Source: Candidatus Nanoarchaeia archaeon (lineage in GTDB: Archaea > Nanobdellota > Nanobdellia > Woesearchaeales > JACQSR01). Taken from it: a stretch of 64,000 nucleotides of DNA. The stretch is taken from assembly GCA_035289105.1 (NCBI GenBank), contig DATDYF010000037.1, positions 6,418 through 70,417 of the forward strand. The letters are read 5' to 3'. The translations under genes were made by a program, and so were the position numbers. This document shows positions 3,356 to 47,298 of the stretch, piece by piece (positions within the stretch are counted from its first letter, which is position 1; each line of letters starts with the position of its first letter). The notes beneath the pieces are model-generated. The model saw only the letters and a list, made by a program, of their open reading frames with translations. It was not told the DNA's origin and searched no databases.

Positions 3356-3396
3356 GGCAAGCTTAATAAATCAAATATCTACCTCCTTATCTGAAT

Positions 3397-3602: not shown

Positions 3603-3649
3603 TTTTTTTCTCCCAAACAATTAAAAACCAGAACATATTCCCCTTCTTT

Positions 3650-3985: not shown

Positions 3986-3989
3986 AATT

Positions 3990-23380: not shown

Positions 23381-24868
23381 CTATAGCAAATAAACCAAAA
23401 CGAAGCCAGCAATAACCAAGGCTATAAACAAACAAGTTTGAGGCTTTTTAAATTTCCAAAGAAACCATGGGAGCCCATGCTTAAAGGAAAATTGTATAAA
23501 ACTTAATGTGCTCGGCACAAAAGCTTTATTGAGATGCATTCTTGCTAATTTCAAAAGATTGTAGGTCTTACTATATAATTTTACATACAATTTTTCGAAT
23601 TTCTTCTTAGGCAGCTTTGTTGGTAGGATAATATTCACGTTATTATAGAGATCATAATTCTTGGTTGTGATTTTGTTTTTTTGTTCTTGATAAAGATCCG
23701 AACCAGGTAATGGGGTGAGTATAGAAAACATTGGATAAAATAAGTGACTATTTTCTTTGTCGAGTTTTTTAACATAATTTAGTAAGGCTTTGAAATCGTT
23801 TTCTTCAAACTCAGGAAGAATAATAAATGATCCAAAAGTTATGATCCCATTATCCGCAAGAATTTTTGTTGCTTTCTCATTATTTTCAATAGTGTTTCTT
23901 TTATTCATCTTGTTGAGAGCTTCAGAACTGATGGCTTCAAAGCCAACAAACACTTCCAAAAGTCCTATTTCCCTCCATTTTCTAATAAGGTCAGGATTTC
24001 TGGCTATCGTATCTGATCTGGCGATAAAATAATATTTCTTTTGTATCCCTTTTTCTTTTATAAGCTGATATATTTTTTCTGCTCTTGTTGTATTTTCAAG
24101 AAAATTATTATCGCAAAAGACTATATATTTTTCAGGCATTTGTTCCAGTTCATTGACGACTTTCTCGGGGCTTTTCACTCTGTATTTTTGCTGGCTAAAT
24201 TTCCATACCGAACAAAAATTACAGTTATAGGGACAACCCCTTGTCGTATCAATGGTGCCAACTGAACGCCAATAGAAACTACTGTATTTTTTTCTATACT
24301 TGTCAACTAGGTGTCGTGCAGGTGCTTTTAACTCTTCCAATGGCATTAAGTCTCTGACCGGGTTATGGATTTCTTTGCCATCCTTCACAAAAGAAATATT
24401 TTTTACTTGTGACACCTCCCCTCCTTTAACCAATACACCAACAAGTTCTTGAAACGCTAACTCACCATCGCCTCTAACAACAAAATCAACTTCAGATTCG
24501 CTTAAGAACTCATGAGCAAGGAAGGTTGCTACGTGGCCTCCTACAACCACTTTTATTCCACTATCAAATTTCTTTATTTCTGTAATTAGATCTTTAATTA
24601 AATTCACATTAGTGGTATAATTGCAGCTTGTTCCAATAATCTCTGGTTTGAATTTTTTGATTGCTTTTGTGAGATTTCCATCAATTCTCATATCGAGAAT
24701 ATCAACTTCATGACCATGATCTAAGAGATAAGCAGCGAGATACTCTAAACCCAAAGGTTCAAGAACATTTGACTCATCAAATCCAGGAACTAAACTTTTT
24801 TTAGAAGTTACGCAATCCGGCTGCACAAGTAGGACTCTCAAAATAACACCTCTTAATATGCAGCTCAA
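23381..24868 (-). CDS. B12-binding domain radical SAM protein
   Basis: N-terminal cobalamin-binding fold (VLLVQPD..LGLEYLAAYL). Radical SAM 'GCPYNCNFC'. 495 aa. Confidence 0.83.
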   Translation of the reverse strand: MSCILRGVILRVLLVQPDCVTSKKSLVPGFDESNVLEPLGLEYLAAYLLDHGHEVDILDMRIDGNLTKAIKKFKPEIIGTSCNYTTNVNLIKDLITEIKKFDSGIKVVVGGHVATFLAHEFLSESEVDFVVRGDGELAFQELVGVLVKGGEVSQVKNISFVKDGKEIHNPVRDLMPLEELKAPARHLVDKYRKKYSSFYWRSVGTIDTTRGCPYNCNFCSVWKFSQQKYRVKSPEKVVNELEQMPEKYIVFCDNNFLENTTRAEKIYQLIKEKGIQKKYYFIARSDTIARNPDLIRKWREIGLLEVFVGFEAISSEALNKMNKRNTIENNEKATKILADNGIITFGSFIILPEFEENDFKALLNYVKKLDKENSHLFYPMFSILTPLPGSDLYQEQKNKITTKNYDLYNNVNIILPTKLPKKKFEKLYVKLYSKTYNLLKLARMHLNKAFVPSTLSFIQFSFKHGLPWFLWKFKKPQTCLFIALVIAGFVLVYLL

Positions 24869-25161: not shown

Positions 25162-25437
25162 ATGGCACGAAAAAACGATTATGACTGGATAAAAATAGTT
25201 GCCTTGTTCATATCGGTTGTTGTGGTGCTAATCATAGCAATAAGCATACGGAATGGGCTAACATCGGATAATATACTTTCAGGGGCAATTACCTTTAAGG
25301 GGCCCAACCCCCATTTATATACTGGACCTAATCCTTTCGGGGAACCTGTTGATATGGAAGCAGCTGTTGCTAGTTATTGTGGCAAAGGTATCTTAGATGC
25401 GGCCCTTGAGGCAAATATTTGTGGAGTGCCACAATGA
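25162..25437 (+). CDS. Small membrane-anchored protein (91 aa). Overlaps the start of the giant gene.
   Basis: Starts 'MARK' within 'aaaatggcacgaaaaa'. The same start context 'aaaatggcacggaaaa' recurs at the giant gene. One TM helix. Confidence 0.42.
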   Translation: MARKNDYDWIKIVALFISVVVVLIIAISIRNGLTSDNILSGAITFKGPNPHLYTGPNPFGEPVDMEAAVASYCGKGILDAALEANICGVPQ

Positions 25438-28400
25438 AAATGGCACGGAAAATAAGGATTTTGTTGCTCGTTTCTTTGATTACCATCATTTCGGCATTTA
25501 GCGCATCAGCAGCAGACTGCGGAAATGGCATCAAGGATTGCGAATGCGGGGATACTGTTGTAGCAGATTATACGTTTAGCTCTGACCTTGTCTGCGACGG
25601 CTCTTCAGGCCCTGTTAGCGGCCTTGTTGTGGGGAGCGATGTGCAGTTGAGCTGTGCTCCTGATGTTAAGATTGAGTGTGCTCCTGGAGTCAAGGATGGA
25701 GGGTCTTGCGAAACTGGAATTTCTATTTCTGCCAGCAACGATATAAGCATAACAGGCTGCACAATCATCGGATGGGATCGCGGAGTAAGGATAGGCAGCG
25801 GCTCTAGCAACATCAATATTACCCTAAACAAAATCTTGCACAACATTCAAGGCATTTTGGTTACGGGAGCCGGAAATAACATCACAATCAGTTATAACAC
25901 TGTATCAGGAAATGGGGTTGAATCTTCCCCTGGGGAAGGAGGGGTTTTGGGAAATTGCGGCGATGGAATAGACAATGATGCAGACACACAAGTGGATTGC
26001 GCGGACAGCGAATGCTCTTTTGATGTCCTGTGCGGAGGGCCTGGGCAGGGATACTTCGGCGGCAGCATCATGGTCTTGACTGTCCACGGCCAGGACAATA
26101 TCCAAATCATCGGGAACACAATTAACGACACTTTTGTATTCGAAAACAGGGGCGCCATTCATATCGGAGGCAGTAATGGCAATATTTCCAATCTTGTAAT
26201 CAGCAACAACACTATATATAATGTTCCCCTCTTCCCGGGAATATCTTTCTCCTTTGTCGGGATTATCAATTTGACGATAAGCAACAACTCGTTAACCAAT
26301 GTCGGAATAGGACTTGGATTTGGTTTTGCTGCGCCAGTTGAAAATGGCATCATCTCGGGAAACAGCGTGACCTGTTCAGGATTGAGTGCTACTCTTGGAG
26401 ATATCGGCATGATGGTAGCGGGAACAGCGGATGTCACCGGTAATATGGTTAATGACTGCGACATAGGCATATTTGCTACATTCGCAGGTCTTGCCCCGGG
26501 ATTTGTGCCCTCTCCAATATCCATTGACGCAAACACAGTAACTTCAAATTTCGGCACTGGAATCTGCACAGACATAGCCTTTGCCACTCTTGAAAACAAC
26601 GTGATATCCAATGGCATTATTGGAATTGCAGACCTCCTTGAGGAGTTTGACCCCGGCAACTGGCAGTCTGGAATAACAATACTCTTTAACTCTTATGCCG
26701 CTGTCCAGAAGGAAATATGCCGGGTTAGATCGCCTCTTGTTGGAGGATGCTTGCAGTTTGCAGAAGACGCATTGGCCGGAACGGTTAATCTGGATGCTTT
26801 GTGCGGTACAGGAGAGCCGCCGTTCTTTTGCCCTATTCAATTTAATTTCATTGTTGGCGGGCAGTTGTATGATGCTCCGGGAGGGGTTGTATATGTTTTC
26901 AAAGAATCAGAAGCCCAGGCTTGCGGCATAGACACCAGCGACGGTGTCCAGGATTATGAGTCGGGTTTGCCTTTCGGCTGTCAGGCTATAACTCAGACTT
27001 GGACTTGCAATGGAATTGCTGGTGGAACATGCAGCATAACGTTAGGTGATCCAGGGCCGGCAGGATATGTTGCGATTGCTTTCGATCATCCTCCAGGCTC
27101 ACAACCGCCGCCTAGTGTAGCTGGTGCTGCCGTATTCGGCGAATCATTATGCGGGGGCCAAGTTGATATCAATGAATTTGGCGGGGAAACCAACTGCGGA
27201 GACGGCATAGACAACGACAATGATGGAAGAATTGATTGCCAGGATGGTGATTGCCAGGGGTCTCCAAGTTGCCCAGGCTGTGTAGTTACCATGAACTGGG
27301 TTGACGAAAACCAACAGCCAGTTAATGCGCCATATGGGAATATTTTATTGCTTTCCTACGATGAAATTAACAATGATTGCGGTATCGACCTCAGTCAGGG
27401 AGTTACTACGGACATCTTCCAGGTATTCGGAAACCCATGTATTACCCAGGTACAAATTTGCGGATTATTCAGCGGAGAATCATTGTCAGACGGGCAATGC
27501 GTCAGCCAGGTTAACATAGCCGCTGGCGACCAAATTGTTGCAGTTGCAATTGGCTCTTTTGGCGCTGAGGAAATCCAGAGTGTGCAGGATTCATGCGAAA
27601 ACGGCTTGGATGATGACGGCAATAACCTTGTAGATTGTGCTGACCCGGCTTGCGCCCCTGCAAGGAATTGCGGACCTTCAAACTCCTTGGTTGGAGGGGG
27701 AATATTTGGGCCACAGGCATGCGGAGGCTCAGCAACAATCGGTCCCCTTGGAGGTCCAGAAGGGTGCCCTCTCACGTTTACTGCATTTGGTGAAAACAAC
27801 AACCCAGTTCCTGACGGTTCGTATATATTTACCTTGGAAACAGCTGTTATTAGCACCATTCCCTACGAATCACCTCAAGGATCGGGCAATTTTATCCTGA
27901 TAGATCCTTCAGATGGCATCGACTTTGATGAATGGTTTGGATTGCTCATCGCAGCTCAAAATGGGCCTCCGCCTGGATTAGACGGTGGGTGTATCTCGCC
28001 CCAAGGCCAGCCAATCCCAACCAGTGGCGGAACCTGTCAGGGAAGTTTAGGGGAACTTTTCCCCGGGAATCCTAATGCACCACACACCGTGGTTGTGCTC
28101 TACGATGACTTTATGAATCCAACACAAATAATTTCACAGAACTATAACTTCCTTACTTGTGGTGGACAGGTTATTATTGGAGAAAGCGGTCCTGAAGTTG
28201 GCGATTGTACAATTACCTATAGCTTTGTCGATGGCCAATCGCAGCCTATCGATGCTCCGAATGGAGGGGTTGTCATATTTAGCCAGAACGCGCTGCAGGC
28301 ATGCGTTGGTACATTTCCGCCCCCGGAGCCAGGAGAAGAGGATTGCAATGCTATCTTTAATCCGTCAGATGGGGTCATGGGCGGTGAAATTAGATGCGCC

Positions 28401-31400
28401 TTTACCTGCCCCGGTGCAAATGTAGGTACCTGTCCCATTAATCTATTTCAGGGAACTCCTGGAATTCCAGGTGGAAGCTGTACCTCCACTATTCTTGGTT
28501 CAGCAAGTCCCGATTACATGATAGCAATTGCTTTGGATACATTTAGTGGGCCGCCTAGCCTTTTTGGCACAGCAACCTTTACAGATGCTGAGTGCGGAAC
28601 AGAGATAATTCCTGGCCAGGTTACGATAGTGGCCGTAGGCGGACCCCCTCCAGGTGCGCTTCAGGTGCTTGTCCTGGAAGGTTCAAACCCCCCAGTAAGC
28701 CCGCCAGGTGCAATAGTCCTTGCCTTTGACGCCACTCAGCTTGAGGCCTTTTTGGGAACTGCTGTTCCTTATGATTTGTCTCCCACGCAGATGCAGAATT
28801 TATTTGCAGATTTAGACCTTGGGCCGGGAGCCGGACAATCTGGCTTTATAGGCGGATGTTTCGGCGAACAGGGGCCTTCACCAACAGGTGCAAATGGCAT
28901 GTGTGATTTGTCATTATTCTTCGGAGATCCAACAGGCCCTGTTGTTGTATTGGCATTCTTGAATTTAGATTTTCAGGCGCCAGATCCTAATTTTATTAAG
29001 ACAAGAGGAGTATACATCGATGGGCCGCCGCCCTCTCCAATCACCATCATCTTCCCCGCCCTTAACCTTTTTGTAGAGAGCGTTACTGCTGCCTCGCCAA
29101 TGGTCTCAGTTACTGCAGGGGCAACAGATGACACAATTGCATACCTTACCCTTTTCGATGGAAGTCCATTCGCCGGTGCAATCCGTATTGAAACAAGGGC
29201 AGTTGCCTTAAGGGTAAATGCTCCAATAACGGAAGTATTTGAAGTGCCGGACAGCCCCTCCACAACCGGAGGAAGCCTTCATGCATTCTTTGCGCAGGTT
29301 TCACCGATTAACGACCTCTTCCCGCAGGATAATGTAAAAGCAGAGGTAAGGCCAAGCATCCTGGCATCTGTAACTAGCAGCAGCAGCACAAAATCCAACT
29401 CTGTCCGTGATTTCTCCTTCACAACAAGTGTTGATGATTACGTTCCTTCCGCAGCCGATTCATTGGTTATCATCGTTCCTGATTTCGGCAAGAGCAAAGC
29501 AGATTATAGCGCCATTGCAGAAAAGCTTGCGCAATCAGAAAAACGGGTATTTGTCATTGACCCTGTTGGGTATAAGGGAACAACCAGTACGGTAACCACC
29601 AGCGACCCCCTCTTCAAAGGGAACAACCTCCGAAAATGGAAAGAGAAGGACCGATTATTGCCTATTTCTGCACAGTTGTGCGCTCTTATTCCTCAATTGA
29701 AGGCCGAAACTGGCCTTGCCAGTGCAACAATCATCGGGGATGGCATGGGCGGGGCAATAGTTAACACCCCGGAATTGGTCTGTTCAGCGCAGGCAAATGC
29801 TTTGGTTTCTACGGGGGCTTACTGCAAGCCGGTCACTTTCAGCGAAGGCGGCCCAAAATCCGCTGTTCCGTATTTCAATCTTAAGGACGGAAAAACCCCA
29901 TGTGAACTGCCCCCTTCATCAGTGCCCTCTTTGGTTTTGCAAGGTGATGAAGAGAAGCCGCAGGGGGATTTGTGGTTCTTCAAGTTCAAGAACAAGAAGC
30001 CAGTTACCTACGGCCTTATCCAGGGCGCCCAAGATTCATTCATAACAAACAGTTTCGCCGGAACACCGGAGTTTGATAATGCAGAGATATACATCAAATC
30101 CTTTATCGAAAAGGAGACAGGCGGTGCATATACTCAGTTGGAGAACGACCTTAACTTGAGGCCGGAGCTTGTCCATCTTTTATTGGAAGATGTCAGGGCA
30201 AATGATGATGCGGTAAAGCCCAAAGACACTCTTGTTTCCAATGATGGCTTCAATCTTTTCGCCATTGAAAGCGCAGACTTAAGCAGCACCCCCACAGGAT
30301 GGGCTGTTGGCTCTGTTGTGGATATCGAAGATGTCAAGGACGACTTTGCCAACTTCATGACCAACGCCCTGAAAATCAGCGCAGGCGAAGCAACTCAAAA
30401 GGTATTTGTTAAGGGAAGCTTTGAAAATCCCGATTCAGGCCAGCTTGTTTTGAACTACAAGGTTCTTGCCCCAAGCACCAACCCGGTTGACAGCTCCGCA
30501 AAACTAAGGCTGGACTTCAAAGACATGCAAGGCAACTCGCTTGCCTGCATTGAATTCCATTCCACAAACCTTCCGGTAAGTTCCACATGCAGCTTTGCCA
30601 TTGCGGTCTCCTCAGGAAACGACGGCAGGATACAGGAGATAAGCAACATCCCAGTCTCCGAGATACTAAAGTCTGTTGGGGCCTTCACAACCAAGATATT
30701 CTCAGTTGACATCGAAATCAGTTCTGACAGTCCCTTTTATTATGATGATGTCGAACTCCTGCTTGAAGAAGATGTTTTGGAGGTGAATGAAGCAGACTTT
30801 TTGGATTTAACTTCTCACACAGCCACCTTCACATCGCCAATTATAAACATAAATGCGGGAGAGCAATTAACATCCATCCTGCCCCTGTTCGTGGCAGAAG
30901 ATGGCGCATCAATTACCGCTGATGTTCTTGATGAATTTGATATTCCCATAATTTCAGGAATTGAGCTTAATTCTGCAGCTAATCTTATGGCATTCCACGA
31001 AACGCTCAAGGGGCTGGATTCATTAAAAGTGCGGTTCAACCTTGATCCGGGAGTTACGCTGTACAAATACTATGTTGTTGCCAAGCCTGTTGATGTGTTT
31101 GATACAAACATTAATGGGGTGGAGGTAAACTCGCTCTTGCTTGACGAGCAGGGCTCCCATTCCGATTACAGCGTTGCATTTAACCTGAACAACCCTGGTG
31201 ACTTTGACTTAATTTCAGCCGGGGAAACATTAAGCTCCGATGCCATCTCATTCGGTGTTGGTGAAATCTACAATCGCGTGGTAAAAACGGATAATTCAAT
31301 CACAAGGAGCGATGCTAATAATGGAATCACTGAAACCGATGTTAGTAGCTCATCAGGCACTGTTGATTCATTTATAACCTTGTTTGATTCGAGTGTCGAT

Positions 31401-34400
31401 ACGATAACCCAGGATATTAACTTTGGGGCTGGGTGCCATGTTGAGGTGGATGATGTCGTAATGACATCGGCTTTCACAACCAACAAGCTTATAGATATTG
31501 TATGCCCTAATGAAGAATTTACACTGACGCCCTTTTACGGCGCTTCAAATATAGAGTTGAATGAAGTAAAGGTAGACCCTGTCGATGCTACAAAAGACAC
31601 TGTAGGGGATTTGGACAAGCTGGAGGTAAGGGATGACAGCGCACTTACGAAAACAGCCGGAGAGTCTGTTCTTGAGGAAGGATATGACTTTTCCTTGCTC
31701 CAGGACTTCCTGCAAAATGACATTTATCAGTTCCTCCTGGATAACGGAATAAACGATTCGCTTACCCAGTTTTTCAAAAATCAGCTGGATAAGTCAGCAG
31801 ATGGTGTACTCAAGAGAGACCAGGTTTTAGAAACTGCATTCCTTGGCTTGTTGGGCGGGGATAATAATTTCTCAACAATAATGGATACTGAAGTGCAGTT
31901 CACGGCTACAGGCATCAGGCTTATCACAAGGACACAGGGAAATTCAATATTGTCCAGAACCATTGGCATTTCAAGCTCATTAAACTCAGACAGGTTTTCA
32001 ATAAAGGGGCCTGGATTGGCAGAAGGCAAATGCACCTCAACAAGGGCAATCGTCCTGGAATCTAGCCTGATTACGCCTAAAGGCCTTTCTGTCTCGGATT
32101 GCGTTGATATTTTTGTAAGGGGAGAATCAAAGGACCTGGCACAGGACGTTAACAGCATTGACCAGCTTGCAAAAGAAGCCGTTAGCCCAAGGCTTGATAA
32201 GGAAATGGTTGATACTGTGCTTGATTCAGCCAAAGATAACGTAACGCCCAGGCGCGGCGTTATCTCAATAGGCGGCAGCTTTGACATGAGGGATTCAACA
32301 ATATCCGCCTTGGATGACTTGGGCTTTATTGGAATCTCTGTTGCCGGAAACAGCTTTGTTGAAAACTCTGAAGTTTTGGACTTCCAATACTTTCAAAGTT
32401 CAGCGGGATGCAATTTCATTGGCTCAGTATTTGAAAGCAGCGCAATTGACCTTCTTGAGGAGGAAAATAGGAATGCGGCAGAGAACAGAAACAGCGAACA
32501 GCTGGACTTCGCCAGGCAATTCCACGGCGTTTCATGCTCAAGTGTTGATACCGGGCCTGCCAATGCCTTGGACCAAAGCCCCTCAGGCAATTATAAGCCT
32601 TCAGATGTTGCCACAAGCAGCGTAGCTGAGGCCACGCTGAAGATATTTGAGATGGACGACCCTTGTGTTTTGAGTGTGGCAGAGGGAGGCAGTGTTTGCG
32701 ATAAAGTCCTTGCTGACTTGAATGCAAGGGATGTGCCGATAACCATAAGGTCATTTGGCGAGGCAGCAGACCAGCTTAACTTGGCAGATATTGCATTTAA
32801 CCAGGATCTTACTAATATCAAGGTGTCCGAAATTGGAAAAATCCCAAGTTCATTATCCTCCATTACATTCAAGGGCATACCATTAGACCAGATTATGGCA
32901 ACAGACATTCTTGACGAAATAAACAACAATCAAAAAATTGACGAGGTTAACGCCATAAGGACTAATATAGAAAACACAGGGATAGACAATAACGCTGATG
33001 AATTGCTGACGGAGGGCGAGGAGATAGCGCAGCCCGGCCTGCTCGATGCAAATTTAGCTCCAGTCTCGTACAGCGGCTTAATGGTTGAAACACCGGTAGA
33101 AGACCTTGATGTTTGCCTGTTAAGCCTGCCTGACGGAACCGGCATATGCGATGTCCGCATAGACCAGGACACCATAATTGAGGATTTGGGCATAACCTTG
33201 TGCGGCCTGAAAAGAAATGGAGTCAGCATATGCAATATTATAACTGATGACCTGAATGATAACCCCACTTTAGATACAGTGGGATATGAGGCAGAGTACC
33301 AGGTTTCAAAGAACGGCGATGTTGACGTATCAGAGCTTTCATTGGGGGATTTGGCTATCGGCGACAGGGGCGATTCTGTGCCGTTTACTGCATTGGACAC
33401 CTCAATCAATAATGTAAAGTTCTGTGACCTCCAGCTTGAAGGGGTCTCCGTTTGCAATGTAGTTGCAGGCAAAACAGCTGTGGAGCAGGCAACTGACTTT
33501 ACAGGATTGGATGCCTTCGACATTATTCAGAAGCTGGAAAATATTCCCGACATCAGGGAATCTGATTACACTGGCTCCTTTGATTACCTTATGGAGAATC
33601 TTAACTTCTGCGCAAATTATGCTGGTTATATTGACGCTGAATTAAGGAAAGAGAATAATCTCGATTACCTGAGGGTTGATAAGTCATTTAAGTTCGGAAA
33701 TGTGGCCAAGCTCCACATCGATGGCATGTGCAGTGTTCAGTTGGACCAAACAAGCCTGTGCGATTTGGAAGGAAACGATGTATACGGGCCCGTCATACAA
33801 AATTCAGCGGCCATAAGCGATTCCTGCAATAATGCTGCTGGAGACTTTGGGTCATGCGTAACAAACCTCAAGGAGCTTAATTCATGCCAGCTGACAATAG
33901 GCGGAGTTTCGGTATGCAGCGTGGAGGTTTCAAAAGGGCTCATTAACGACCAAACTGTTTATGCCGGATTTAACATAACCAAGCTGCAAATTAATGGGCT
34001 TTGCGCGCTGGCTTACAAGGGAATAAGCATTTGCGACACTTCAATAGATAAGGTGTTCAACTTTACAGAATCCCAGGGCACGCTTGAAGCAGCTACCGGC
34101 GAAGAATTGATATCTGCGTGCGACCTGACCTTTAACGGCATTAACCTGTGTTCTGGCCATCAATTTGATGATGAGTTCTGCGACCAGGCAAAAATAGACG
34201 GCGTAAGCGTATGCAACAGCAGATGGGACAACAGGCTTGTTGATGATGAACTAATCACCGAAGCTGCGCAGGGCCAGGTATTTAATGATGCCCGAGATGG
34301 AGGAACATTCGGCGATGAGCAAAAACAAAGGCTTCTAAGGCCGAGCGTTTGCGACTTGGAGATAAATGGCACCACATTGTGCGATGCCGTTGCTCTAGTA

Positions 34401-37400
34401 ACATTTACCAACACAGTGCTGCCTGGCGAATCACCTGCAGACTTTGTATTGGACCACACCGTACTTGAGTTTGTTAGTATGGATGAAACCAAGGTTAACC
34501 TTCTATTGATAGAGCTCGGGGAGAAATGCAATGAGCTGTTTATCAATGTAACTGATATCATCAACAAAACAATACCTAACATAGAGCATAAGGGAGTTCC
34601 GCTGTCAGAAATGACTTTATGCGATGATGTTGAAATCAATGGCTTAAGCCTGTGCGATGCCAATTTAGTATTGATAAACGATAGCGACATCCTTGATGTG
34701 GTGCTAAATGGGGATGTTGTAGGCCAGATGGATTTAAGGGCCCTCCTCACAAACCTCGTCTTTGCCTTAACTTATGATGTAGGTGGAGAAACATTCAATG
34801 ATGCGACTGGAACAATAGGGGACATATTGGACCTGAGGGAAGTAAGGCTTGGCTCTTCCAACCTTCTCGATAACGTGCTCCTTTCTTCCAATTCCATAAG
34901 GAATAGCGAAGTTGATGTGCTGACAAGGCTATTTATGGATTACTCAATAGGCACCCTCTCGAAACCGCAAAGGACTCTAACATTCGACAATAAGAAGGCA
35001 ATTGAAGTGTTGGATATAACATTAAACTCTTATGACCAATTCAACCTGGATTGCGCTATAGCGAAGGAGATTCAGAGCAAGGTAGATTTGGAGGGCACTG
35101 AAATTGATTCTCCGATAAGCAAGGTTGAGTTGTGCGATGTGTTTGGCATTCCTACACCCTTAAGCAATGCGCAATTTGGAATCAGCTCCTACTCACCGCC
35201 TATTGGAAGTCTTAAGGAGGGCAGCCTAACGGTTAATCTTAACAGCGTAGAGTTTAGCGATTTCACTCTTGAAACGCTGTATAACCTTACTGAGTTCGAT
35301 TCAGAAACATGTGATATTCACAACAATGAATTTACGGATGCAGCTGTATCAATCAATTGCGAATTAAGCGCAACGGGAAATAACTTCTTTGGCAAGGACC
35401 TTAGCGATGGCGGTGACTTAATCCTTGGGTCGCCTGGCGCATTAGTAGTAGCTGTACCGGATGATGACGATAAAGTTGAAATATCCGGAAACAGGTTTAA
35501 TTTCAACCACATGGGAGGCCCTGGATTGGTGGGCGCAGCAGAAGTTGATGTATCTAAAAACGATTTCGTGGACCCATTGTTTAACGCACAATACATAACT
35601 GATTCCAGGAATTATCTGGAGCAGTTCATTGTAAAAGAGAACCTCGACACTGTAGATATAAACGACAACGTGCTTGTTGATAGAGTTGAAAGCAGGATAA
35701 GCAGGGATGAAGCCAAGGAGCTCGCTAATACCGCTGACAAATACAATCTTGTTGACGACAGGTATGCGGATTTAGCTTCGGATAGGTCAGAAATAGCAGA
35801 GCTTAATAGGGCATTAAGCCAGCTTAATGATATAGACATTGAAAGCATCCAGCTGACAAATGAAATTGCCGATATGTTTGGCATAGATATATCGAGAGTT
35901 GAAACATTGCTTAATAGGGAATTAACACCGATAGATATTTCAAACCTCGATGTGGATAACACCCTAAATATAGAGAGGAATTACTACAGGGGCTTTAACA
36001 GTGTTAGGGCATATTTGCCCGAGCTAATAATCCCGGGAAATCTCAACTTTGCTACAGAGACCTCAGTGTTTATTTATCCAAAGAAGCGCGTATCCTTCGT
36101 TGGCAACGCCATCGTTGACAATCCGCCTATAAAAATAAAATCAAAAGAGGCGATTGACATCTCTAAGGTATTATTGCTGAATAACTTCAGGGCTGGCTGT
36201 GAAATTGATGATGCAGCCGGCATGAGAAACTGCGCCGATGTTGAGTTATCAACCATGGCGGAACCGCCAGAGATTTCAGGTGCAACCGCTGCGTCATTGG
36301 ATAGGGATGAGGATACTGTGCCTAACCATGTTGACAACTGCCCATTCACCCCAAATACTGGCCAGGAAGACACGGACTTTGACACTTTAGGGGATATGTG
36401 CGATAACTGCGATGATTTCAACCCTGACCAGTTTGACAGGGACCTTGATGGGATTGGAGATGTATGTGATAATGATAGGGATGGCGACGGCATTGCCAAT
36501 CCGGCAGATGCCTGCCCAAATGCCTTCGATCCGGGCAATTCAGCGGAAATATGCAGTGGTTGTGTTGATTTGGATGCAGATACATTCTACGCCTTTGATG
36601 CGGATGAATGCACTGGGGGCAATGACTGTGATGACAGCAACGCAGCAGCAAACATCTTTAGATTGGAGGCATGCAATAATCTGGATGACAATTGTAACGG
36701 CCAAACTGACGAATCCGTGCTCCAGAGATGCGGTGCTAGCGATGTAGGAGAATGTACTTTTGGAGTTGAAGCTTGCTCAGCAGGAAGCTACATTGGATGC
36801 ACTGCAATATTGCCCACTGCAGAGGTTTGCGATGGCTTGGATAATGATTGCGATGCAATAGTGGATGAAGGGATTGCTCCACAGCAGTGCGAAGTTACTG
36901 ATGCTGGAGAATGCAGATTTGGATTAAGGAGCTGTGAAGGAGGCGCATTCAGTTCTTGTGTGGGCAACATTGATCCAGTAGCAGAGATATGCGATAGCCT
37001 TGACAATGATTGTGATGGGCAAGCAGATGAAAGCGCTGCAGGCGGAGACCTTACAGAGGTTTGTGGCACAGATGTAGGCGCATGCCAAACTGGCGTGAGA
37101 ACGTGCTCTGCAGGAGGATTTGGAGTATGTGTGGGAGAAATTGCTCCCGTAGGGGAGACATCCTTGGCCTGCAACAACATAGATGATAACTGCAATGGAG
37201 TAATAGACGATGGTTATGATAGGGATGATGATGGCTTTACGAGCTGTGATACGCCAAAACCAGACTGCAACGACAACGATCGGTCAATTAATCCGGATGC
37301 GCCTGAAAGATGCAACGATGGCATAGACAACAACTGTGATGGCAAAGTAGACTTTGGCGATACAGTTAACTGCCCTGCTGCCGATAAGGTATCTGTTGAG

Positions 37401-38453
37401 CTGCACACAATAGACCAGGCAAAAACTAATTATTGCGGTGCAGGAAGGGGCAGCTGCAAGGAGCCGATACAAGGTGCTAGGGTAAAAGTCTTTGACAGGG
37501 ATAACGCTGACTTCCAGAGCGCGTTCACCAAGAATCCAAGCGGCACTTTATACGATGTGGTCTATGAGTCTGACATTGGCTTGATTGGCAGCTGCATTAC
37601 TGACAGCAGCGGCAGTTGCCTTGCAGTGGAGCAAGGTGCTGGCACTTACCTAGTTATAATCAAATATGTAGACGAGGAAACAAACTCAAATATATATGTA
37701 GGCAGGCCAAAGTCCCCATCTGACTTCGTTGATGTGAATGGCGACGGCAAAAGGGATATGGCAACAAAAGAAATACAAATAATTAAAGTCCTCGAAAAGG
37801 GCGGCAGGATTACCTTTAGGGGAGGAAGCAAAATCGTTGTTACAGGCTCAGAATTAGTGGTTATTTCAGCTGATAATGTGATTTGGATGAATGACAGGGA
37901 AGTTTATCCGTTCATATTCACTTCAGATGCTGACTGGACTGTGGATGTCTGCATGCAAATACCTGCGGGCTACCGAATAGAAGGTGTGCTGGATGAGAAT
38001 GGAAACGTAGTAACTACGGCAAATTGCGCGCAAACGTTTGTATCCGGCGAGGCTAAAGTAGTTATTTTCTCAGTAGTTGAAGTAGGCAGTCCGGAGCCTA
38101 ATTTCGGATTCACATTAACTACAAAGCATAATGGAAAAACTCAAACGGCAAAGGGGACAATAAATGGCATAAGGCAAAAAACGAAAACCCAATTGCAAAA
38201 GCAAATATCAACTAAAGTTAAGGCAGCTAAACAGGAAATAGCTAATCGCCAAGCAAAAAGCCAAACAAAAGAGACAGCTTCTCCACTAACCTCCAGAGCA
38301 GTAATCTCCAGGGCAGCAATGAGTTCAGCAACAGCATCAGAGCCTGTTGCGCCAAATGGAAATCTGACTTTCATATTCGCAATTTCTTCTATAGCCCTGC
38401 TTGTGTTATTGCTGGCAGTTATATATATCTACAAGGAAAGGGCAGCAAGATAA
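25419..38453 (+). CDS. Giant secreted cell-surface protein (4344 aa). Contains signal peptide, parallel beta-helix, three CGDGIDND Cys motifs, C-x9-C repeat array, TSP3-like Ca-binding repeats, MopE-like Cys-rich repeats, CarboxypepD_reg-like domain and a C-terminal TM anchor.
   Basis: Single uninterrupted 13035-nt ORF. N-terminal 'KIRILLLVSLITIISAFSASA'. PbH1-like 'ISNNTIYNV/ISNNSLTNV/ISGNSVT'. 'NCGDGIDNDNDGRIDCQDGDC' appears three times. 'DTDFDTLGDMCDNCDDFNPDQFDRDLDGIGDVCDNDRDGDG'. 'CDGLDNDCDAIVDE/CDSLDNDCDGQADE'. 'GARVKVFD..TDSSGSC..GTYLVI'. C-terminus '..LTFIFAISSIALLVLLLAVIYIYKERAAR'. Confidence 0.9.
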   Translation: MWSATMKMARKIRILLLVSLITIISAFSASAADCGNGIKDCECGDTVVADYTFSSDLVCDGSSGPVSGLVVGSDVQLSCAPDVKIECAPGVKDGGSCETGISISASNDISITGCTIIGWDRGVRIGSGSSNINITLNKILHNIQGILVTGAGNNITISYNTVSGNGVESSPGEGGVLGNCGDGIDNDADTQVDCADSECSFDVLCGGPGQGYFGGSIMVLTVHGQDNIQIIGNTINDTFVFENRGAIHIGGSNGNISNLVISNNTIYNVPLFPGISFSFVGIINLTISNNSLTNVGIGLGFGFAAPVENGIISGNSVTCSGLSATLGDIGMMVAGTADVTGNMVNDCDIGIFATFAGLAPGFVPSPISIDANTVTSNFGTGICTDIAFATLENNVISNGIIGIADLLEEFDPGNWQSGITILFNSYAAVQKEICRVRSPLVGGCLQFAEDALAGTVNLDALCGTGEPPFFCPIQFNFIVGGQLYDAPGGVVYVFKESEAQACGIDTSDGVQDYESGLPFGCQAITQTWTCNGIAGGTCSITLGDPGPAGYVAIAFDHPPGSQPPPSVAGAAVFGESLCGGQVDINEFGGETNCGDGIDNDNDGRIDCQDGDCQGSPSCPGCVVTMNWVDENQQPVNAPYGNILLLSYDEINNDCGIDLSQGVTTDIFQVFGNPCITQVQICGLFSGESLSDGQCVSQVNIAAGDQIVAVAIGSFGAEEIQSVQDSCENGLDDDGNNLVDCADPACAPARNCGPSNSLVGGGIFGPQACGGSATIGPLGGPEGCPLTFTAFGENNNPVPDGSYIFTLETAVISTIPYESPQGSGNFILIDPSDGIDFDEWFGLLIAAQNGPPPGLDGGCISPQGQPIPTSGGTCQGSLGELFPGNPNAPHTVVVLYDDFMNPTQIISQNYNFLTCGGQVIIGESGPEVGDCTITYSFVDGQSQPIDAPNGGVVIFSQNALQACVGTFPPPEPGEEDCNAIFNPSDGVMGGEIRCAFTCPGANVGTCPINLFQGTPGIPGGSCTSTILGSASPDYMIAIALDTFSGPPSLFGTATFTDAECGTEIIPGQVTIVAVGGPPPGALQVLVLEGSNPPVSPPGAIVLAFDATQLEAFLGTAVPYDLSPTQMQNLFADLDLGPGAGQSGFIGGCFGEQGPSPTGANGMCDLSLFFGDPTGPVVVLAFLNLDFQAPDPNFIKTRGVYIDGPPPSPITIIFPALNLFVESVTAASPMVSVTAGATDDTIAYLTLFDGSPFAGAIRIETRAVALRVNAPITEVFEVPDSPSTTGGSLHAFFAQVSPINDLFPQDNVKAEVRPSILASVTSSSSTKSNSVRDFSFTTSVDDYVPSAADSLVIIVPDFGKSKADYSAIAEKLAQSEKRVFVIDPVGYKGTTSTVTTSDPLFKGNNLRKWKEKDRLLPISAQLCALIPQLKAETGLASATIIGDGMGGAIVNTPELVCSAQANALVSTGAYCKPVTFSEGGPKSAVPYFNLKDGKTPCELPPSSVPSLVLQGDEEKPQGDLWFFKFKNKKPVTYGLIQGAQDSFITNSFAGTPEFDNAEIYIKSFIEKETGGAYTQLENDLNLRPELVHLLLEDVRANDDAVKPKDTLVSNDGFNLFAIESADLSSTPTGWAVGSVVDIEDVKDDFANFMTNALKISAGEATQKVFVKGSFENPDSGQLVLNYKVLAPSTNPVDSSAKLRLDFKDMQGNSLACIEFHSTNLPVSSTCSFAIAVSSGNDGRIQEISNIPVSEILKSVGAFTTKIFSVDIEISSDSPFYYDDVELLLEEDVLEVNEADFLDLTSHTATFTSPIININAGEQLTSILPLFVAEDGASITADVLDEFDIPIISGIELNSAANLMAFHETLKGLDSLKVRFNLDPGVTLYKYYVVAKPVDVFDTNINGVEVNSLLLDEQGSHSDYSVAFNLNNPGDFDLISAGETLSSDAISFGVGEIYNRVVKTDNSITRSDANNGITETDVSSSSGTVDSFITLFDSSVDTITQDINFGAGCHVEVDDVVMTSAFTTNKLIDIVCPNEEFTLTPFYGASNIELNEVKVDPVDATKDTVGDLDKLEVRDDSALTKTAGESVLEEGYDFSLLQDFLQNDIYQFLLDNGINDSLTQFFKNQLDKSADGVLKRDQVLETAFLGLLGGDNNFSTIMDTEVQFTATGIRLITRTQGNSILSRTIGISSSLNSDRFSIKGPGLAEGKCTSTRAIVLESSLITPKGLSVSDCVDIFVRGESKDLAQDVNSIDQLAKEAVSPRLDKEMVDTVLDSAKDNVTPRRGVISIGGSFDMRDSTISALDDLGFIGISVAGNSFVENSEVLDFQYFQSSAGCNFIGSVFESSAIDLLEEENRNAAENRNSEQLDFARQFHGVSCSSVDTGPANALDQSPSGNYKPSDVATSSVAEATLKIFEMDDPCVLSVAEGGSVCDKVLADLNARDVPITIRSFGEAADQLNLADIAFNQDLTNIKVSEIGKIPSSLSSITFKGIPLDQIMATDILDEINNNQKIDEVNAIRTNIENTGIDNNADELLTEGEEIAQPGLLDANLAPVSYSGLMVETPVEDLDVCLLSLPDGTGICDVRIDQDTIIEDLGITLCGLKRNGVSICNIITDDLNDNPTLDTVGYEAEYQVSKNGDVDVSELSLGDLAIGDRGDSVPFTALDTSINNVKFCDLQLEGVSVCNVVAGKTAVEQATDFTGLDAFDIIQKLENIPDIRESDYTGSFDYLMENLNFCANYAGYIDAELRKENNLDYLRVDKSFKFGNVAKLHIDGMCSVQLDQTSLCDLEGNDVYGPVIQNSAAISDSCNNAAGDFGSCVTNLKELNSCQLTIGGVSVCSVEVSKGLINDQTVYAGFNITKLQINGLCALAYKGISICDTSIDKVFNFTESQGTLEAATGEELISACDLTFNGINLCSGHQFDDEFCDQAKIDGVSVCNSRWDNRLVDDELITEAAQGQVFNDARDGGTFGDEQKQRLLRPSVCDLEINGTTLCDAVALVTFTNTVLPGESPADFVLDHTVLEFVSMDETKVNLLLIELGEKCNELFINVTDIINKTIPNIEHKGVPLSEMTLCDDVEINGLSLCDANLVLINDSDILDVVLNGDVVGQMDLRALLTNLVFALTYDVGGETFNDATGTIGDILDLREVRLGSSNLLDNVLLSSNSIRNSEVDVLTRLFMDYSIGTLSKPQRTLTFDNKKAIEVLDITLNSYDQFNLDCAIAKEIQSKVDLEGTEIDSPISKVELCDVFGIPTPLSNAQFGISSYSPPIGSLKEGSLTVNLNSVEFSDFTLETLYNLTEFDSETCDIHNNEFTDAAVSINCELSATGNNFFGKDLSDGGDLILGSPGALVVAVPDDDDKVEISGNRFNFNHMGGPGLVGAAEVDVSKNDFVDPLFNAQYITDSRNYLEQFIVKENLDTVDINDNVLVDRVESRISRDEAKELANTADKYNLVDDRYADLASDRSEIAELNRALSQLNDIDIESIQLTNEIADMFGIDISRVETLLNRELTPIDISNLDVDNTLNIERNYYRGFNSVRAYLPELIIPGNLNFATETSVFIYPKKRVSFVGNAIVDNPPIKIKSKEAIDISKVLLLNNFRAGCEIDDAAGMRNCADVELSTMAEPPEISGATAASLDRDEDTVPNHVDNCPFTPNTGQEDTDFDTLGDMCDNCDDFNPDQFDRDLDGIGDVCDNDRDGDGIANPADACPNAFDPGNSAEICSGCVDLDADTFYAFDADECTGGNDCDDSNAAANIFRLEACNNLDDNCNGQTDESVLQRCGASDVGECTFGVEACSAGSYIGCTAILPTAEVCDGLDNDCDAIVDEGIAPQQCEVTDAGECRFGLRSCEGGAFSSCVGNIDPVAEICDSLDNDCDGQADESAAGGDLTEVCGTDVGACQTGVRTCSAGGFGVCVGEIAPVGETSLACNNIDDNCNGVIDDGYDRDDDGFTSCDTPKPDCNDNDRSINPDAPERCNDGIDNNCDGKVDFGDTVNCPAADKVSVELHTIDQAKTNYCGAGRGSCKEPIQGARVKVFDRDNADFQSAFTKNPSGTLYDVVYESDIGLIGSCITDSSGSCLAVEQGAGTYLVIIKYVDEETNSNIYVGRPKSPSDFVDVNGDGKRDMATKEIQIIKVLEKGGRITFRGGSKIVVTGSELVVISADNVIWMNDREVYPFIFTSDADWTVDVCMQIPAGYRIEGVLDENGNVVTTANCAQTFVSGEAKVVIFSVVEVGSPEPNFGFTLTTKHNGKTQTAKGTINGIRQKTKTQLQKQISTKVKAAKQEIANRQAKSQTKETASPLTSRAVISRAAMSSATASEPVAPNGNLTFIFAISSIALLVLLLAVIYIYKERAAR
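33108..34670 (+). repeat. Array of about 11 degenerate C-x9-C repeats (consensus C-D-L-x-h-x-G-h-S-h-C-D/N) inside the giant protein
   Basis: VCLLSLPDGTGICD, LCGLKRNGVSICN, FCDLQLEGVSVCN, MCSVQLDQTSLCD, SCQLTIGGVSVCS, LCALAYKGISICD, ACDLTFNGINLCS, FCDQAKIDGVSVCN, VCDLEINGTTLCD, LCDDVEINGLSLCD. Confidence 0.6.
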
Positions 38454-38518: not shown

Positions 38519-40897
38519 ATGCTGGAGAGATACGTCAGATTTGTTGAGAAGCATGCAAAATTATTGCTTTTCTTAGTCTTTCTTGTAACTTTGTTCTTCA
38601 TTTTCAGCCTTAAGGATTTGTCTTTTGACTCGGGTTCTGAAAGATTTGTGCCGCCTGACGTTCTGGAAAAACATAAGGAAATCATGGATGCATTCAACAT
38701 GAGCAGCAGGCCTTTCTATGTGTTGGTTACAGGAAAAAACATAAGTGTGCTCTCACTAGAAGCACTAAAAGAGGAATATACTCTTTCAAAAGCATTGGAA
38801 TCCGAATTTGGCATTAAAATAATTAACATTGCCTACTTATTCGACTTTCTTTTAAGGCAGGAAAAAAACGAGACCCTGCTCCAGCAGGAAAGCTGGGTAA
38901 ATGTGAGCCAGACTTTTAAGAGCGCTTTGGACGAAGTCAGAAGCATCAAGCCCTTAAAGCAGCAATTCAAGGAATTCTCATATCAGCTTTTGTCAAACGA
39001 CCTGGATAAAAGGGAGCTATTTTCTCCTGCAATTCTAAGAAGAACCCTCTCTGCAAACAAAACATTGTTCATTGTGTTGCCTGAAGAAGTTTATGATGAG
39101 AAAGAGATGCTGCAATTGAGCCTGAATATGCGGGATTTTCTCTCTGGCAAAAGCTTTGATTATATTGATGCAAAGGCATTCTCAGATCTGTACCTTATTT
39201 ACGAATCAGACTCGTATATGCGGAACGAAGCCTTTTACCTCGGAATCTTAATGTTTCTGATAATCGCTTTTATTTTGTTTCTCTACCTCAGGCGTATTTC
39301 TTATGTCATGATTCCGTTGATTATCATAGGGGTCTCTCTGGTTTGGACTTTTGGCACTGCAGCCTTTTTAGGAATAGAGCTTACGTTTCTTGGGACTCTT
39401 ATCGCCCCTGTATTAATTGGAGCCGGAGTGGATTACTCTGTGCACTTTATTAGAAGGTATACCGAAGAAAGGAAAACAAAGGAAAGCACTCAGGCATTTA
39501 GCATTACTCTGGCGCACACCGGAAAAGCCACATTCATGACCGCCGTTATAACAGCTATTTCTTTTGGGTCAAACTTTTTCTCCACACTTCCTCCGCTGAA
39601 AGATTTTGGCATAATTACCGCTGTTGGAATTCTATATGCGTTTATTTTAACCATAGTTCTTCAGCAAGCGCTAATGAGCCTTGTCGAAAGGCCAAAAGAG
39701 CTTGTGTTTGCAGCAAGGGAAAATCCGTGGTCAAAGAATATTCTAAAATTTACCTTGGAGCATTATAAGGGAATATTGCTTGTTACTGTTTTAATTAGCC
39801 TTGTCAGCGGATATTATGCCCTGCAGATAAACAGCTATTTTGACTTTGAAGCTTCGATATCGCAGGAAATTGAATCAAGGAAAACAATCAAGGATATTCG
39901 GGATAATTTTCCCTTCGAATTGCAGATTGGGGCGCTGGTGAGAAATGCAGACGACCCTTTTCTCTTTGAGAAAATTTACAGTTTTGAAGAAGAAATGAAA
40001 AAAAGCCCTTATGTAATCCAAATAGATGGCAGCATAAAAACAGACAACATAAGGAGGGCACTGAAGATGGTATTTGGCTATAACGAAAGCCTTGCTGAAA
40101 AATTCGAATTTAACCTGGAAGGAATCCCCACAACTGTAAATCGGACTCTCGTCCTGGATTTATATCAAGATATTTATTCCAGCAATACAGCAATTAACCC
40201 CCTTTTCAACCTAAGCACCTCTAATTTAATCCATACAGTCCTGCAAAGAACAGATTCCGATAATTACAGCACAGTTATTGTAGCGAAAATGGTGATTCCA
40301 AATACGGAGGCCTTAGAAAAGGGGGTGAGTAATTTTACAAATTCCCTGGATATAGCAAAAATACAGGTGGAGGATTTTTTTGGCTGGGCTTATTATGCAT
40401 TTACAATTGATGAAAACATTGCTGAAAGCAACCAAAAATCAGTGTTTTTCTCAATCCTGACCATATTCGTGGTTCTTCTGCCAGTTTACAGAAAAGTTAG
40501 AGAAATAGTGTACCTTATGCTGCCAATCTTGATTACCATACTCTGGACCATAGGGGCATTGTCAATCCTGGGCATTGCCTTAAACCCTGCAAATGCGATG
40601 GTGGCAGTAATGATAATTGGGTTGGGCTTGGATTATAACATCCACATAGTTGAAAGATACAAAGAAGAAAGGCAGAAATTTTCAAAACTGGAAGCGTTGG
40701 AAAACACGTTAAGCCAATCCGGCTCGGCAATATTTTTTTCTGCCTTGACAACGGTTGCCGCATTTGCAGTAATAGCCATCTCCAGAATCCCAATAACAAG
40801 GGAGTTCGGCCTAATACTCCTGATAGCAATAACCGCTGGCTTTTTGTTCAGCTCCATAATCACGCCTATTTTGCTGTATAGGTGGGATCTGGAATAG
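38519..40897 (+). CDS. RND-superfamily / MMPL-type exporter with two 6-TM bundles and sterol-sensing-like domain
   Basis: Duplicated 'GAGVDYSVHFIRRYTEER' and 'GLGLDYNIHIVERYKEER' motifs following TM bundles. Large periplasmic-type loops. About 790 aa. Confidence 0.82.
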   Translation: MLERYVRFVEKHAKLLLFLVFLVTLFFIFSLKDLSFDSGSERFVPPDVLEKHKEIMDAFNMSSRPFYVLVTGKNISVLSLEALKEEYTLSKALESEFGIKIINIAYLFDFLLRQEKNETLLQQESWVNVSQTFKSALDEVRSIKPLKQQFKEFSYQLLSNDLDKRELFSPAILRRTLSANKTLFIVLPEEVYDEKEMLQLSLNMRDFLSGKSFDYIDAKAFSDLYLIYESDSYMRNEAFYLGILMFLIIAFILFLYLRRISYVMIPLIIIGVSLVWTFGTAAFLGIELTFLGTLIAPVLIGAGVDYSVHFIRRYTEERKTKESTQAFSITLAHTGKATFMTAVITAISFGSNFFSTLPPLKDFGIITAVGILYAFILTIVLQQALMSLVERPKELVFAARENPWSKNILKFTLEHYKGILLVTVLISLVSGYYALQINSYFDFEASISQEIESRKTIKDIRDNFPFELQIGALVRNADDPFLFEKIYSFEEEMKKSPYVIQIDGSIKTDNIRRALKMVFGYNESLAEKFEFNLEGIPTTVNRTLVLDLYQDIYSSNTAINPLFNLSTSNLIHTVLQRTDSDNYSTVIVAKMVIPNTEALEKGVSNFTNSLDIAKIQVEDFFGWAYYAFTIDENIAESNQKSVFFSILTIFVVLLPVYRKVREIVYLMLPILITILWTIGALSILGIALNPANAMVAVMIIGLGLDYNIHIVERYKEERQKFSKLEALENTLSQSGSAIFFSALTTVAAFAVIAISRIPITREFGLILLIAITAGFLFSSIITPILLYRWDLE

Positions 40898-46243: not shown

Positions 46244-46295
46244 AAGGTTTTTCCAGGCAAACATTAAAAAATACGCTTTATTACTCCATCTTCCC

Positions 46296-46448
46296 ATGAA
46301 ATACAAACTCGTCTGCTTTGATGTTGACGGCACGCTAATAGACGGAGTTGAATTCAGCTGGACTCATCTACATAATTACTTCAATGTCGATATTAAAGAT
46401 TTGCGAATCGCCATAAATCGAATTAAGTCTAAATCTTTATATACTTAA
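46296..46448 (+). pseudogene. Duplicated 5' fragment (50 codons) of the HAD hydrolase gene at 47299
   Basis: 46292-46400 is about 90 percent identical to 47295-47403, including the 5 nt upstream of the ATG. Encodes MKYKLVCFDVDGTLIDGVEFSWTHLHNYF.. then diverges and stops. Confidence 0.5.
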
Positions 46449-46496: not shown

Positions 46497-47267
46497 ATGA
46501 TTGATTCTGCAAGAAAACATCTGGAAGAGGGCATTTCTAGAATTATTAATACTGATTCCATTGACAAAAAAATCGAAGATACTGCATCGTTATATGTCGA
46601 ATGCTTTGAAATGGAATTAGAGAAAATCAAGAAATTCGGGCAGCAGGAGAGGGTCTCTTATATTACCGGGCTAAGAAATGGGAGGCTTCAGGGCACAGAC
46701 AAAGGATTAAGGGAGGCTAGAAAAAGGACAAATGAAAAAGTTTCTTCTTTGCTTAATGCGCTGTACGATGGTGCAAAAAATATGGAAGAGGAACCGAAGC
46801 GAGAGATTTATGCACCAGTCAATAAAATAAGGGGGATGCTGATGCTGCGCGAATCCATCACAGGAGGGAAGGAAAGCCCTATTGAGAAAGACCTGGAGAA
46901 ACGCATTCCTGAGATTTCGGTAAAATCACAGGGAAAACATGCCGATGTCAGATACCTCACTGATTTGTACACAGCGTGCTATTCAGACTGCTTTGGCAAT
47001 GCAATAGAAAGCATCAGGGCCATGGCTGAAGTAAACCAAAAAGCCGTTTATGACATAGGCGAATCATTCGGCCGGGTACAATATTTCTTCAAAGAGAGGA
47101 ATAGTGCAATGCTAAGCTTATCTGAACAGATAAAACAATTGCTCACCGAAGTTGATGTCGCAGTCAGAAACCTTCAGCCTGAACAAAAACAAAAAATTTA
47201 CATGGCGACAAACAGCATCAGGCTAGCCCTAAGCCCTGATAAATATTGGCCGGTAAGCAGACAATAA
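46497..47267 (+). CDS. Hypothetical protein (cargo between the duplicated HAD 5' ends)
   Basis: 256-aa ORF with no recognised family. Confidence 0.5.
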   Translation: MIDSARKHLEEGISRIINTDSIDKKIEDTASLYVECFEMELEKIKKFGQQERVSYITGLRNGRLQGTDKGLREARKRTNEKVSSLLNALYDGAKNMEEEPKREIYAPVNKIRGMLMLRESITGGKESPIEKDLEKRIPEISVKSQGKHADVRYLTDLYTACYSDCFGNAIESIRAMAEVNQKAVYDIGESFGRVQYFFKERNSAMLSLSEQIKQLLTEVDVAVRNLQPEQKQKIYMATNSIRLALSPDKYWPVSRQ

Positions 47268-47298
47268 GGCTTAAAAGCCAAACGCCTATTCATTTCCC

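Follow-up and report, generated by a model that had tools for sequence, protein, structure and literature searches.

The giant gene and its two-cysteine units

We analysed a stretch of 64,000 nucleotides (the window) of contig DATDYF010000037.1 from a Candidatus Nanoarchaeia archaeon, in which a giant gene encodes a protein with an array of short units of two cysteines each. The gene is an uninterrupted open reading frame (ORF) of 4344 codons on the forward strand (25419..38453), a 13-kb open frame whose likely start is the ATG at 25434. As read from the translation, the product begins with a predicted signal peptide (MKMARKIRILLLVSLITIISAFSASA, 25434..25511), and judging by hydrophobicity it ends with a putative membrane helix (LTFIFAISSIALLVLLLAVIYIY, 38364..38432), followed by the tail KERAAR. 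Between these two elements, Pfam and NCBIfam models placed a right-handed beta-helix (NosD, PF13229) at amino acids (aa) ~90-170 and three copies of an acidic double-disulfide, Cys-rich repeat (NF033662) in aa ~180-750. These are followed by about 2400 aa without any family above threshold and then, near the membrane end (36279..37499, aa ~3620-4000), by two thrombospondin type 3 (TSP3) repeats (PF02412) and five MopE-type Cys-rich motifs (PF11617). A second, weak beta-helix match was found at aa ~3300-3400. All these features, like the units and modules described below, are on the forward strand. TSP3 and MopE-type repeats are known as extracellular, disulfide-containing and calcium-binding.

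The signal peptide, the single C-terminal membrane helix with its basic tail and the extracellular-type Cys-rich and calcium-binding repeats are all predicted from the sequence and together form the set expected of an anchored giant surface protein. They fit the extracellular location proposed in a preliminary description of this DNA. The giant protein may accordingly be described as a putative membrane-anchored extracellular surface protein and possibly, from its architecture alone, as an adhesin. It contains 3.1% Cys and has an isoelectric point (pI) of ~4; the neighbouring genes that we checked encode proteins with 0-2.6% Cys (mostly ~1%) and a near-neutral pI. Since the neighbours are not acidic, the acidity of the giant protein is not a halophile trait.

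The preliminary description had reported about 11 C-x9-C mini-repeats at 33108-34670. When all Cys pairs at a spacing of 10 or 11 were listed and aligned, 11 strong units were indeed recovered, with the motif C-x-[LV]-x-h-[NDE]-G-[VIT]-S-[VIL]-C-[DNS], but only seven of them are C-x9-C. The remaining four (units 2416, 2566, 2921 and 3068, each unit being named after the protein position of its first Cys) are C-x10-C, and one of the 11 lies upstream of the reported interval, which contains the other ten. That one is unit 2416 (CVLSVAEGGSVC-D, 32664..32699); the unit closest to it in sequence is 2566 (CLLSLPDGTGIC-D, 33114..33149). The stricter pattern proposed for all units, C-(D/S)-L-x-h-x-G-(V/I/L)-S-(V/I/L)-C-(D/N), matches unit 2669 alone, and the start-to-start distances are irregular and range from 20 to 150 residues instead of from 20 to 60.

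The fixed part of the motif is its second half, and the first half reads C-x-[LV]-x-h-[NDE]. Gly is found four residues ahead of the second Cys in 10 of the 11 units; relative to that Cys, Ser occupies position -2 in 8/11, V/I/L position -1 in 11/11 and D/N/S position +1 in 11/11. The half-motif G-x-x-[VIL]-C-[DNS] has ten matches in the whole protein, all of them within aa 2423-3080, and the same count is obtained with the narrower form G-x-[STNG]-[VIL]-C-[DNS]. An N-glycosylation sequon is present in unit 2978 only, and a general sequon within the motif was rejected on this ground.

The arrangement of the cysteines departs strongly from random expectation. The region of aa 2400-3100 has 26 Cys, which form 14 pairs at a spacing of 10 or 11, in comparison to a mean of 1.8 and a maximum of 8 in 20,000 shuffles. 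Conservation of the non-Cys columns of the units amounts to 23.7 bits against 14.7 +/- 0.8 bits after shuffling within units, and the observed value was reached in none of 20,000 shuffles. A hidden Markov model (HMM) of the units gave no further match in the six-frame translation of the window. We found no direct or tandem DNA-level repeats underlying the units and therefore rejected recent DNA duplication as their origin; the copies are old and diverged and have been kept similar at the protein level.

Occurrence in independent assemblies

The same sequence was assembled in at least five independent samples, with 99.8-100% identity where covered and without frameshifts (ENA ERZ4903055, ERZ27254752, ERZ28563803, ERZ4903137 and ERZ27254845; Logan SRR2090153 and SRR3989344). 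Nine of the 12 differences across assemblies are synonymous and none of the 12 falls within a unit. In every such assembly the giant gene is broken at a contig end, with partial products of 389-4091 aa. The ORFs antisense to the giant gene had no family matches, and genes on the opposite strand were rejected accordingly. The possibility that the units merely reflect chance or composition, or that the ORF is not a real gene, is refuted by the shuffle tests, the 13-kb open frame, the repeated assembly of an identical sequence, the mostly synonymous differences and the lack of family matches among the antisense ORFs, and we leave it practically no weight.

One assembly with an identical contig carries the label 'ANAN16-1_SAMN03842431', which presumably points to a Colorado aquifer data set. 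From the names of contigs and samples, the contigs appear to derive from aquifer groundwater. We also noticed that, in one of the loci compared with the window (L012), 8 of the 10 differences within the giant gene are clustered in 70 nt at 28940-29009 (aa 1174-1197), and seven of these eight are synonymous; the cluster is a patch of local strain variation or of recombination.

Organisation of the units into modules

Comparison of the protein with itself revealed that 8 of the 11 units mark both ends of four tandem diverged modules of ~95-134 residues with a variable middle, which we named Z, A, B and C. The term mini-repeats is thus apt for the short units and incomplete as a description of the array, in which eight units are the terminal elements of larger modules. 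Modules A and B are similar to each other at a blastp E value of 4e-9, and an HMM of the module recovered all four copies at 98-146 bits together with a faint partial copy ending in unit 2566. Units 2416 and 2566, the most alike, both lie upstream of module Z.

Module Z (aa 2582-2700, 33162..33518) has unit 2595 (CGLKRNGVSIC-N, 33201-33233) as its N-terminal hairpin and unit 2669 (CDLQLEGVSVC-N, 33423-33455) as its C-terminal hairpin, to use the structural term that we propose below. An insert between modules Z and A (33516..33680) contains the lone Cys 2731 and is helical in a low-confidence model. Module A (aa 2755-2850, 33681..33968) includes unit 2771 (CSVQLDQTSLC-D, 33729-33761), unit 2823 (CQLTIGGVSVC-S, 33885-33917) and a weak pair, 2803 (CNNAAGDFGSC, 33825-33857), which has the spacing of a unit and lacks the motif. 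Module B (aa 2846-2950, 33954..34268) carries units 2862 (CALAYKGISIC-D, 34002-34034), 2901 (CDLTFNGINLC-S, 34119-34151) and 2921 (CDQAKIDGVSVC-N, 34179-34214). Module C (aa 2962-3095, 34302..34703) is bounded by units 2978 (CDLEINGTTLC-D, 34350-34382) and 3068 (CDDVEINGLSLC-D, 34620-34655), and its variable middle contains a second lone residue, Cys 3037 (34527-34529). Modules A and B each have one additional Cys pair, which results in a Cys every 10 residues (2803/2813/2823/2833 in module A and 2901/2911/2921/2932 in module B).

Searches for a known family and for relatives

The preliminary description had not recognised the units as a described Pfam repeat, and within the reach of our searches this proved correct. 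Neither Pfam-A nor NCBIfam had a match on aa 2400-3100 even at E<=10, and sequence and profile searches of the PDB returned nothing significant for the region, the best matches (a PDZ segment, 'LQVDGVSLC', and a segment of uL4; E 0.3-2) being chance matches. The motif could be assigned to no named family and differs in its defining features from all the families considered.

No relatives were retrieved by word-indexed protein searches with aa 2400-3100 and with aa 1200-2399, nor by a protein search with a profile built from the 11 units and their flanks, in which only 38 candidates were scored. A full HMMER (phmmer) scan of 1.84 billion representative proteins gave zero matches, and an exact look-up of the full-length protein with three alternative starts found no record. 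At the genome level, GTDB scans with the aa 2400-3100 region and with the MMPL gene downstream of the giant gene, a JGI metagenome scan with the aa 2400-3100 region and tblastn against plasmids gave no relatives either. A degenerate DNA motif, which recovers two of the units in the window itself, had 0 matches in viral contigs and 10 loci in metagenomes, approximately the number expected by chance; each was an isolated match in a short ORF of spurious appearance, and no array was among them.

We used the population itself as a control of these searches. Cut products of the giant gene exist on public contigs, and yet they are absent from the protein collection and were retrieved neither by the word-indexed nor by the full HMMER search. 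Protein libraries therefore omit genes cut by contig ends, and the lack of homologues is a weaker result than the sizes of the databases suggest. Short-read assemblies usually contain giant genes in this cut form, and a preprint likewise reports that assembly fragmentation often hides them (10.1101/2023.11.21.568195). Homology searches therefore systematically under-sample giant genes.

The units could, for this reason, belong to a wider family, named or unnamed, that our searches missed. Such a family would be easy to overlook with a short motif, fast-diverging sequences and giant genes that are mostly truncated in assemblies, and the failure of protein searches to return the contig copies of this very protein, as well as the small number of candidates scored with the unit profile, speak in its favour. 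It is at odds with the empty Pfam and NCBIfam results at a permissive threshold, with the absence of matches in the HMMER scan and with the DNA-level scans, which do not depend on gene calling and gave only chance-level single matches in spurious ORFs. We regard a missed family as unlikely, though with a sizeable residual chance; it overlaps the hairpin interpretation given below and does not exclude it. At present the motif is known from one protein of one population.

It is conceivable, and we propose it only tentatively, that the four modules are examples of an extracellular domain of ~100 residues that has not been described before, is confined to a DPANN lineage and is defined by hairpins closed by Cys at both ends. 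Through these staples, the mechanics or the protease resistance of the stalk might come to depend on redox state when the cell passes from oxic to anoxic groundwater or back. DPANN archaea are commonly regarded as reliant on host-cell contact, and giant surface proteins, mostly unannotated along their length, are prime candidates for mediating such contact. The motif and the module model offer a handle for annotating such regions, for searching fragmented assemblies and for choosing a construct of ~100 aa.

Evidence on the proposed disulfide-closed hairpins

The most economical reading of the units is a disulfide-stapled beta-hairpin. We infer that each unit would be a hairpin closed by its own two Cys and that pairs of hairpins would clamp the ends of the ~100-residue extracellular modules of the anchored giant protein and thereby stabilise them; we hold this reading, with its fold, its pairing partners and its stabilising role, at about an even chance. 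Each unit would make a tight [N/D/E]-G turn and form a disulfide between its own cysteines. The staples would lock the module ends, so that the long, acidic and exposed chain could better resist unfolding and proteolysis, and the stabilised stalk would lie between the N-terminal beta-helix region and the membrane-proximal calcium-binding repeats.

Several features of the units argue for this reading. Both Cys are invariant and Gly is nearly so; the second Cys keeps a fixed distance from it (Gly+4), beta-branched or hydrophobic residues make up the flanks, and the Gly is preceded by N/D/E. Such a sequence is typical of hairpin turns, and its conservation far exceeds that of the shuffles. Two Cys flanking a turn-forming sequence, one of the traits expected of stapled hairpins as a structural class, are present in the units. 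There are exactly two Cys in every unit, and isolated units, such as 2416 with Cys 2416/2427, have no other Cys within 40-140 residues. Throughout aa 1200-3620 the Cys occur mostly as close pairs divided by long Cys-free stretches, a pattern typical of local disulfides. The known disulfide-containing extracellular repeats of the same protein (acidic double-disulfide, TSP3 and MopE) also count for disulfides. Further points in favour are the Cys content and the acidity that set the giant protein apart from its neighbours, the signal peptide with the single C-terminal membrane helix, and the module structure, with the similarity of A to B and the four full copies recovered by the module HMM.

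Isolated close pairs are also found outside the array (2006/2029, 2205/2228, 1710/1724, 3212/3239, 3298/3314 and 3594/3605), and the two C-x22-C pairs, 2006/2029 and 2205/2228, lie 199 residues apart. For this unannotated central part of the protein, the distribution suggests additional local disulfide loops and perhaps diverged repeat modules of other types.

Structure prediction with AlphaFold2 modelled a strand-turn-strand at units 2566, 2823, 2901, 2978 and 3068 when aa 2555-3095 were folded from the single sequence, and at units 2771 and 2823 when module A was folded with the four-module alignment. The predicted local distance difference test (pLDDT) values were 29.9 and 31.6, respectively, and these models lend the hairpins weak support. 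In the first strand (C-x-L-x-h), the phase of the Cys agrees with that of the hydrophobic positions, whereas in the second strand (V-S-V-C) the Cys and the hydrophobic positions are in opposite phase. For the two Cys to stand directly opposite each other, the x9 units therefore need a three-residue turn, and the x10 units a four-residue turn or a bulge. Hairpins of both types are common and have Gly as the last residue of the loop, and the staple geometry seems feasible for the units as judged from their sequence.

A number of observations weigh against the stapled hairpin. Neither structure model is usable at the confidence obtained; moreover, the modelled turn is always a two-residue N-G, and in this register the two Cys are offset by one step and point to opposite faces of the hairpin, which would not allow the disulfide. 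The phase mismatch of the second Cys belongs here as well. The protein, genome and metagenome searches found no relatives in which conservation of the Cys could be followed across species, no disulfide-forming enzyme was detected among the ~40 window ORFs scanned against Pfam, and Cys 2731 and 3037 are left without an obvious partner. In addition, the aquifer groundwater from which the contigs, by their names, appear to come may be reducing.

In a rival reading, the disulfides would link neighbouring hairpins within a module, or different chains in a covalently cross-linked surface layer. The four Cys at a regular 10-residue spacing in modules A and B (C-x9-C-x9-C-x9/10-C), the low-confidence models, which turn both Cys of a unit to opposite sides of the hairpin, the location of the first Cys on the same face as the hydrophobic positions, and the lone Cys 2731 and 3037 would all be compatible with such bonds. 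The isolated units 2416, 2566, 2978 and 3068, however, have their own second Cys as the only nearby partner, every unit has an even number of Cys, and models at a pLDDT of ~30 are weightless in this matter. We consider bonds between units or between chains rather unlikely.

A further alternative is that the Cys pairs remain reduced and serve as thiolate ligands or as reactive thiols for metals or for mineral or host surfaces, the flanking Asp or Asn aiding the binding; this appears still less probable, and we rate it as distinctly improbable. The residue after the second Cys is in all units Asp, Asn or Ser and the one after the first is often Asp, groundwater of the kind suggested by the contig names may be anoxic, and the giant protein has motifs that Pfam labels 'putative metal-binding'. 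The units, on the other hand, have no His and no CxxC, no metal-binding family of Pfam matches aa 2400-3100, and the MopE-type motifs are ~700 residues away. We know of no metal-site pattern that would match two thiolates 10 residues apart across a hairpin. The metal sites offered in the preliminary description as one role for the paired Cys gained no specific support.

Comparison with known systems

Short disulfide-closed loops are a widespread theme in extracellular repeat proteins, and the units resemble this theme functionally. The motif follows a common design principle of extracellular proteins, and we consider the result useful but not surprising. The Cys-rich regions of the TNF receptor and of the EGFR and insulin receptors are built of single-disulfide beta-finger modules in a rod-like ectodomain. 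By analogy, the units would likewise be short extracellular loops of ~10-15 residues with one disulfide each, in repeated form, but the receptor modules follow one another head to tail, without long spacers and with another consensus, whereas the units are separated by 20-150 residues inside larger modules. No TNFR_c6 or Furin-like match to the giant protein was reported by Pfam.

The NF033662, PF11617 and PF02412 repeats of the same polypeptide are, like the units, acidic, extracellular, short and Cys-paired, but differ in Cys spacing and consensus. Their matches are confined to aa ~180-750 and ~3620-4000 and never fall in aa 2400-3100, and we do not count the units among them. Nor do the units belong to the right-handed beta-helix (PF13229/NosD), whose matches lie outside the array and whose rung of ~22 residues contrasts with the irregular 20-150 spacing.

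The C-x9-C spacing and the consecutive runs in modules A and B recall the twin CX9C (CHCH) proteins of the mitochondrial intermembrane space. In those proteins the motifs lie in two alpha-helices that are bonded together, whereas in the units the central Gly, the preceding N/D and the beta-branched residues argue for a hairpin; in addition, four units have the x10 spacing and the majority occur singly. With no Pfam match and a mid-motif Gly flanked by V/I/T/S, from which we judged helix formation by sequence, we rejected CHCH membership.

Tachyplesin, protegrin and arenicin are free, cationic antimicrobial peptides with a disulfide-stapled beta-hairpin. They share with the units, as we read them, a hairpin closed by a Cys pair flanking a tight turn, but the units are acidic and embedded in a protein of 4344 aa. 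A comparable case is the giant adhesin of Mobiluncus mulieris, which is reported (PMC10619420) to be a giant surface protein with repeated domains that each carry internal covalent cross-links, disulfides among them. As described there, its domains are bacterial Ig-like ones with ester, isopeptide and thioester bonds, and they have no sequence relation to the units.

Other features of the giant protein and its genomic neighbourhood

Upstream of the array, aa ~1342-1467 of the giant protein resemble an alpha/beta-hydrolase weakly (Pfam E 0.03-0.26, below threshold), with G-D-G-M-G-G at 29730-29753 (aa ~1438-1445) where the nucleophile elbow G-x-S-x-G is expected. If this is a real domain, its catalytic Ser has been replaced by Gly and it is probably inactive. 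Internal repeats of ~150-300 residues, unannotated by Pfam, are present in aa ~430-1180 (window ~26700-28960), for example 532-589 against 1015-1075 and 621-650 against 930-959, and lie intermingled with the acidic double-disulfide repeats.

The neighbouring genes are archaeal and include those for a family B DNA polymerase, CDC48 and GatD/GatE. The CDC48 and MMPL proteins of the window are identical to GenBank HLC65265.1 and HLC65272.1, from a metagenome-assembled genome of 'Candidatus Nanoarchaeia archaeon', a DPANN class. A B12-binding radical SAM gene (23381-24868, reverse strand) is found upstream of the giant gene in the opposite orientation, and a gene for an MMPL/RND-type transporter (38519-40897, forward strand) begins 65 nt past its stop codon.

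Further downstream on the forward strand, the window encodes a transglutaminase-like protein (56182-56910) and a 617-aa protein with a lytic transglycosylase (SLT) domain (61701-63554); for an archaeon, this domain may hint at an action on bacterial cell walls. A direct repeat of 101 nt (46291-46391 and 47294-47394; 91% identical, 1003 nt apart) flanks an unannotated 256-aa ORF at 46497-47267; its two copies may have arisen by duplication of an intergenic or promoter segment, or may be the termini of a small inserted element.

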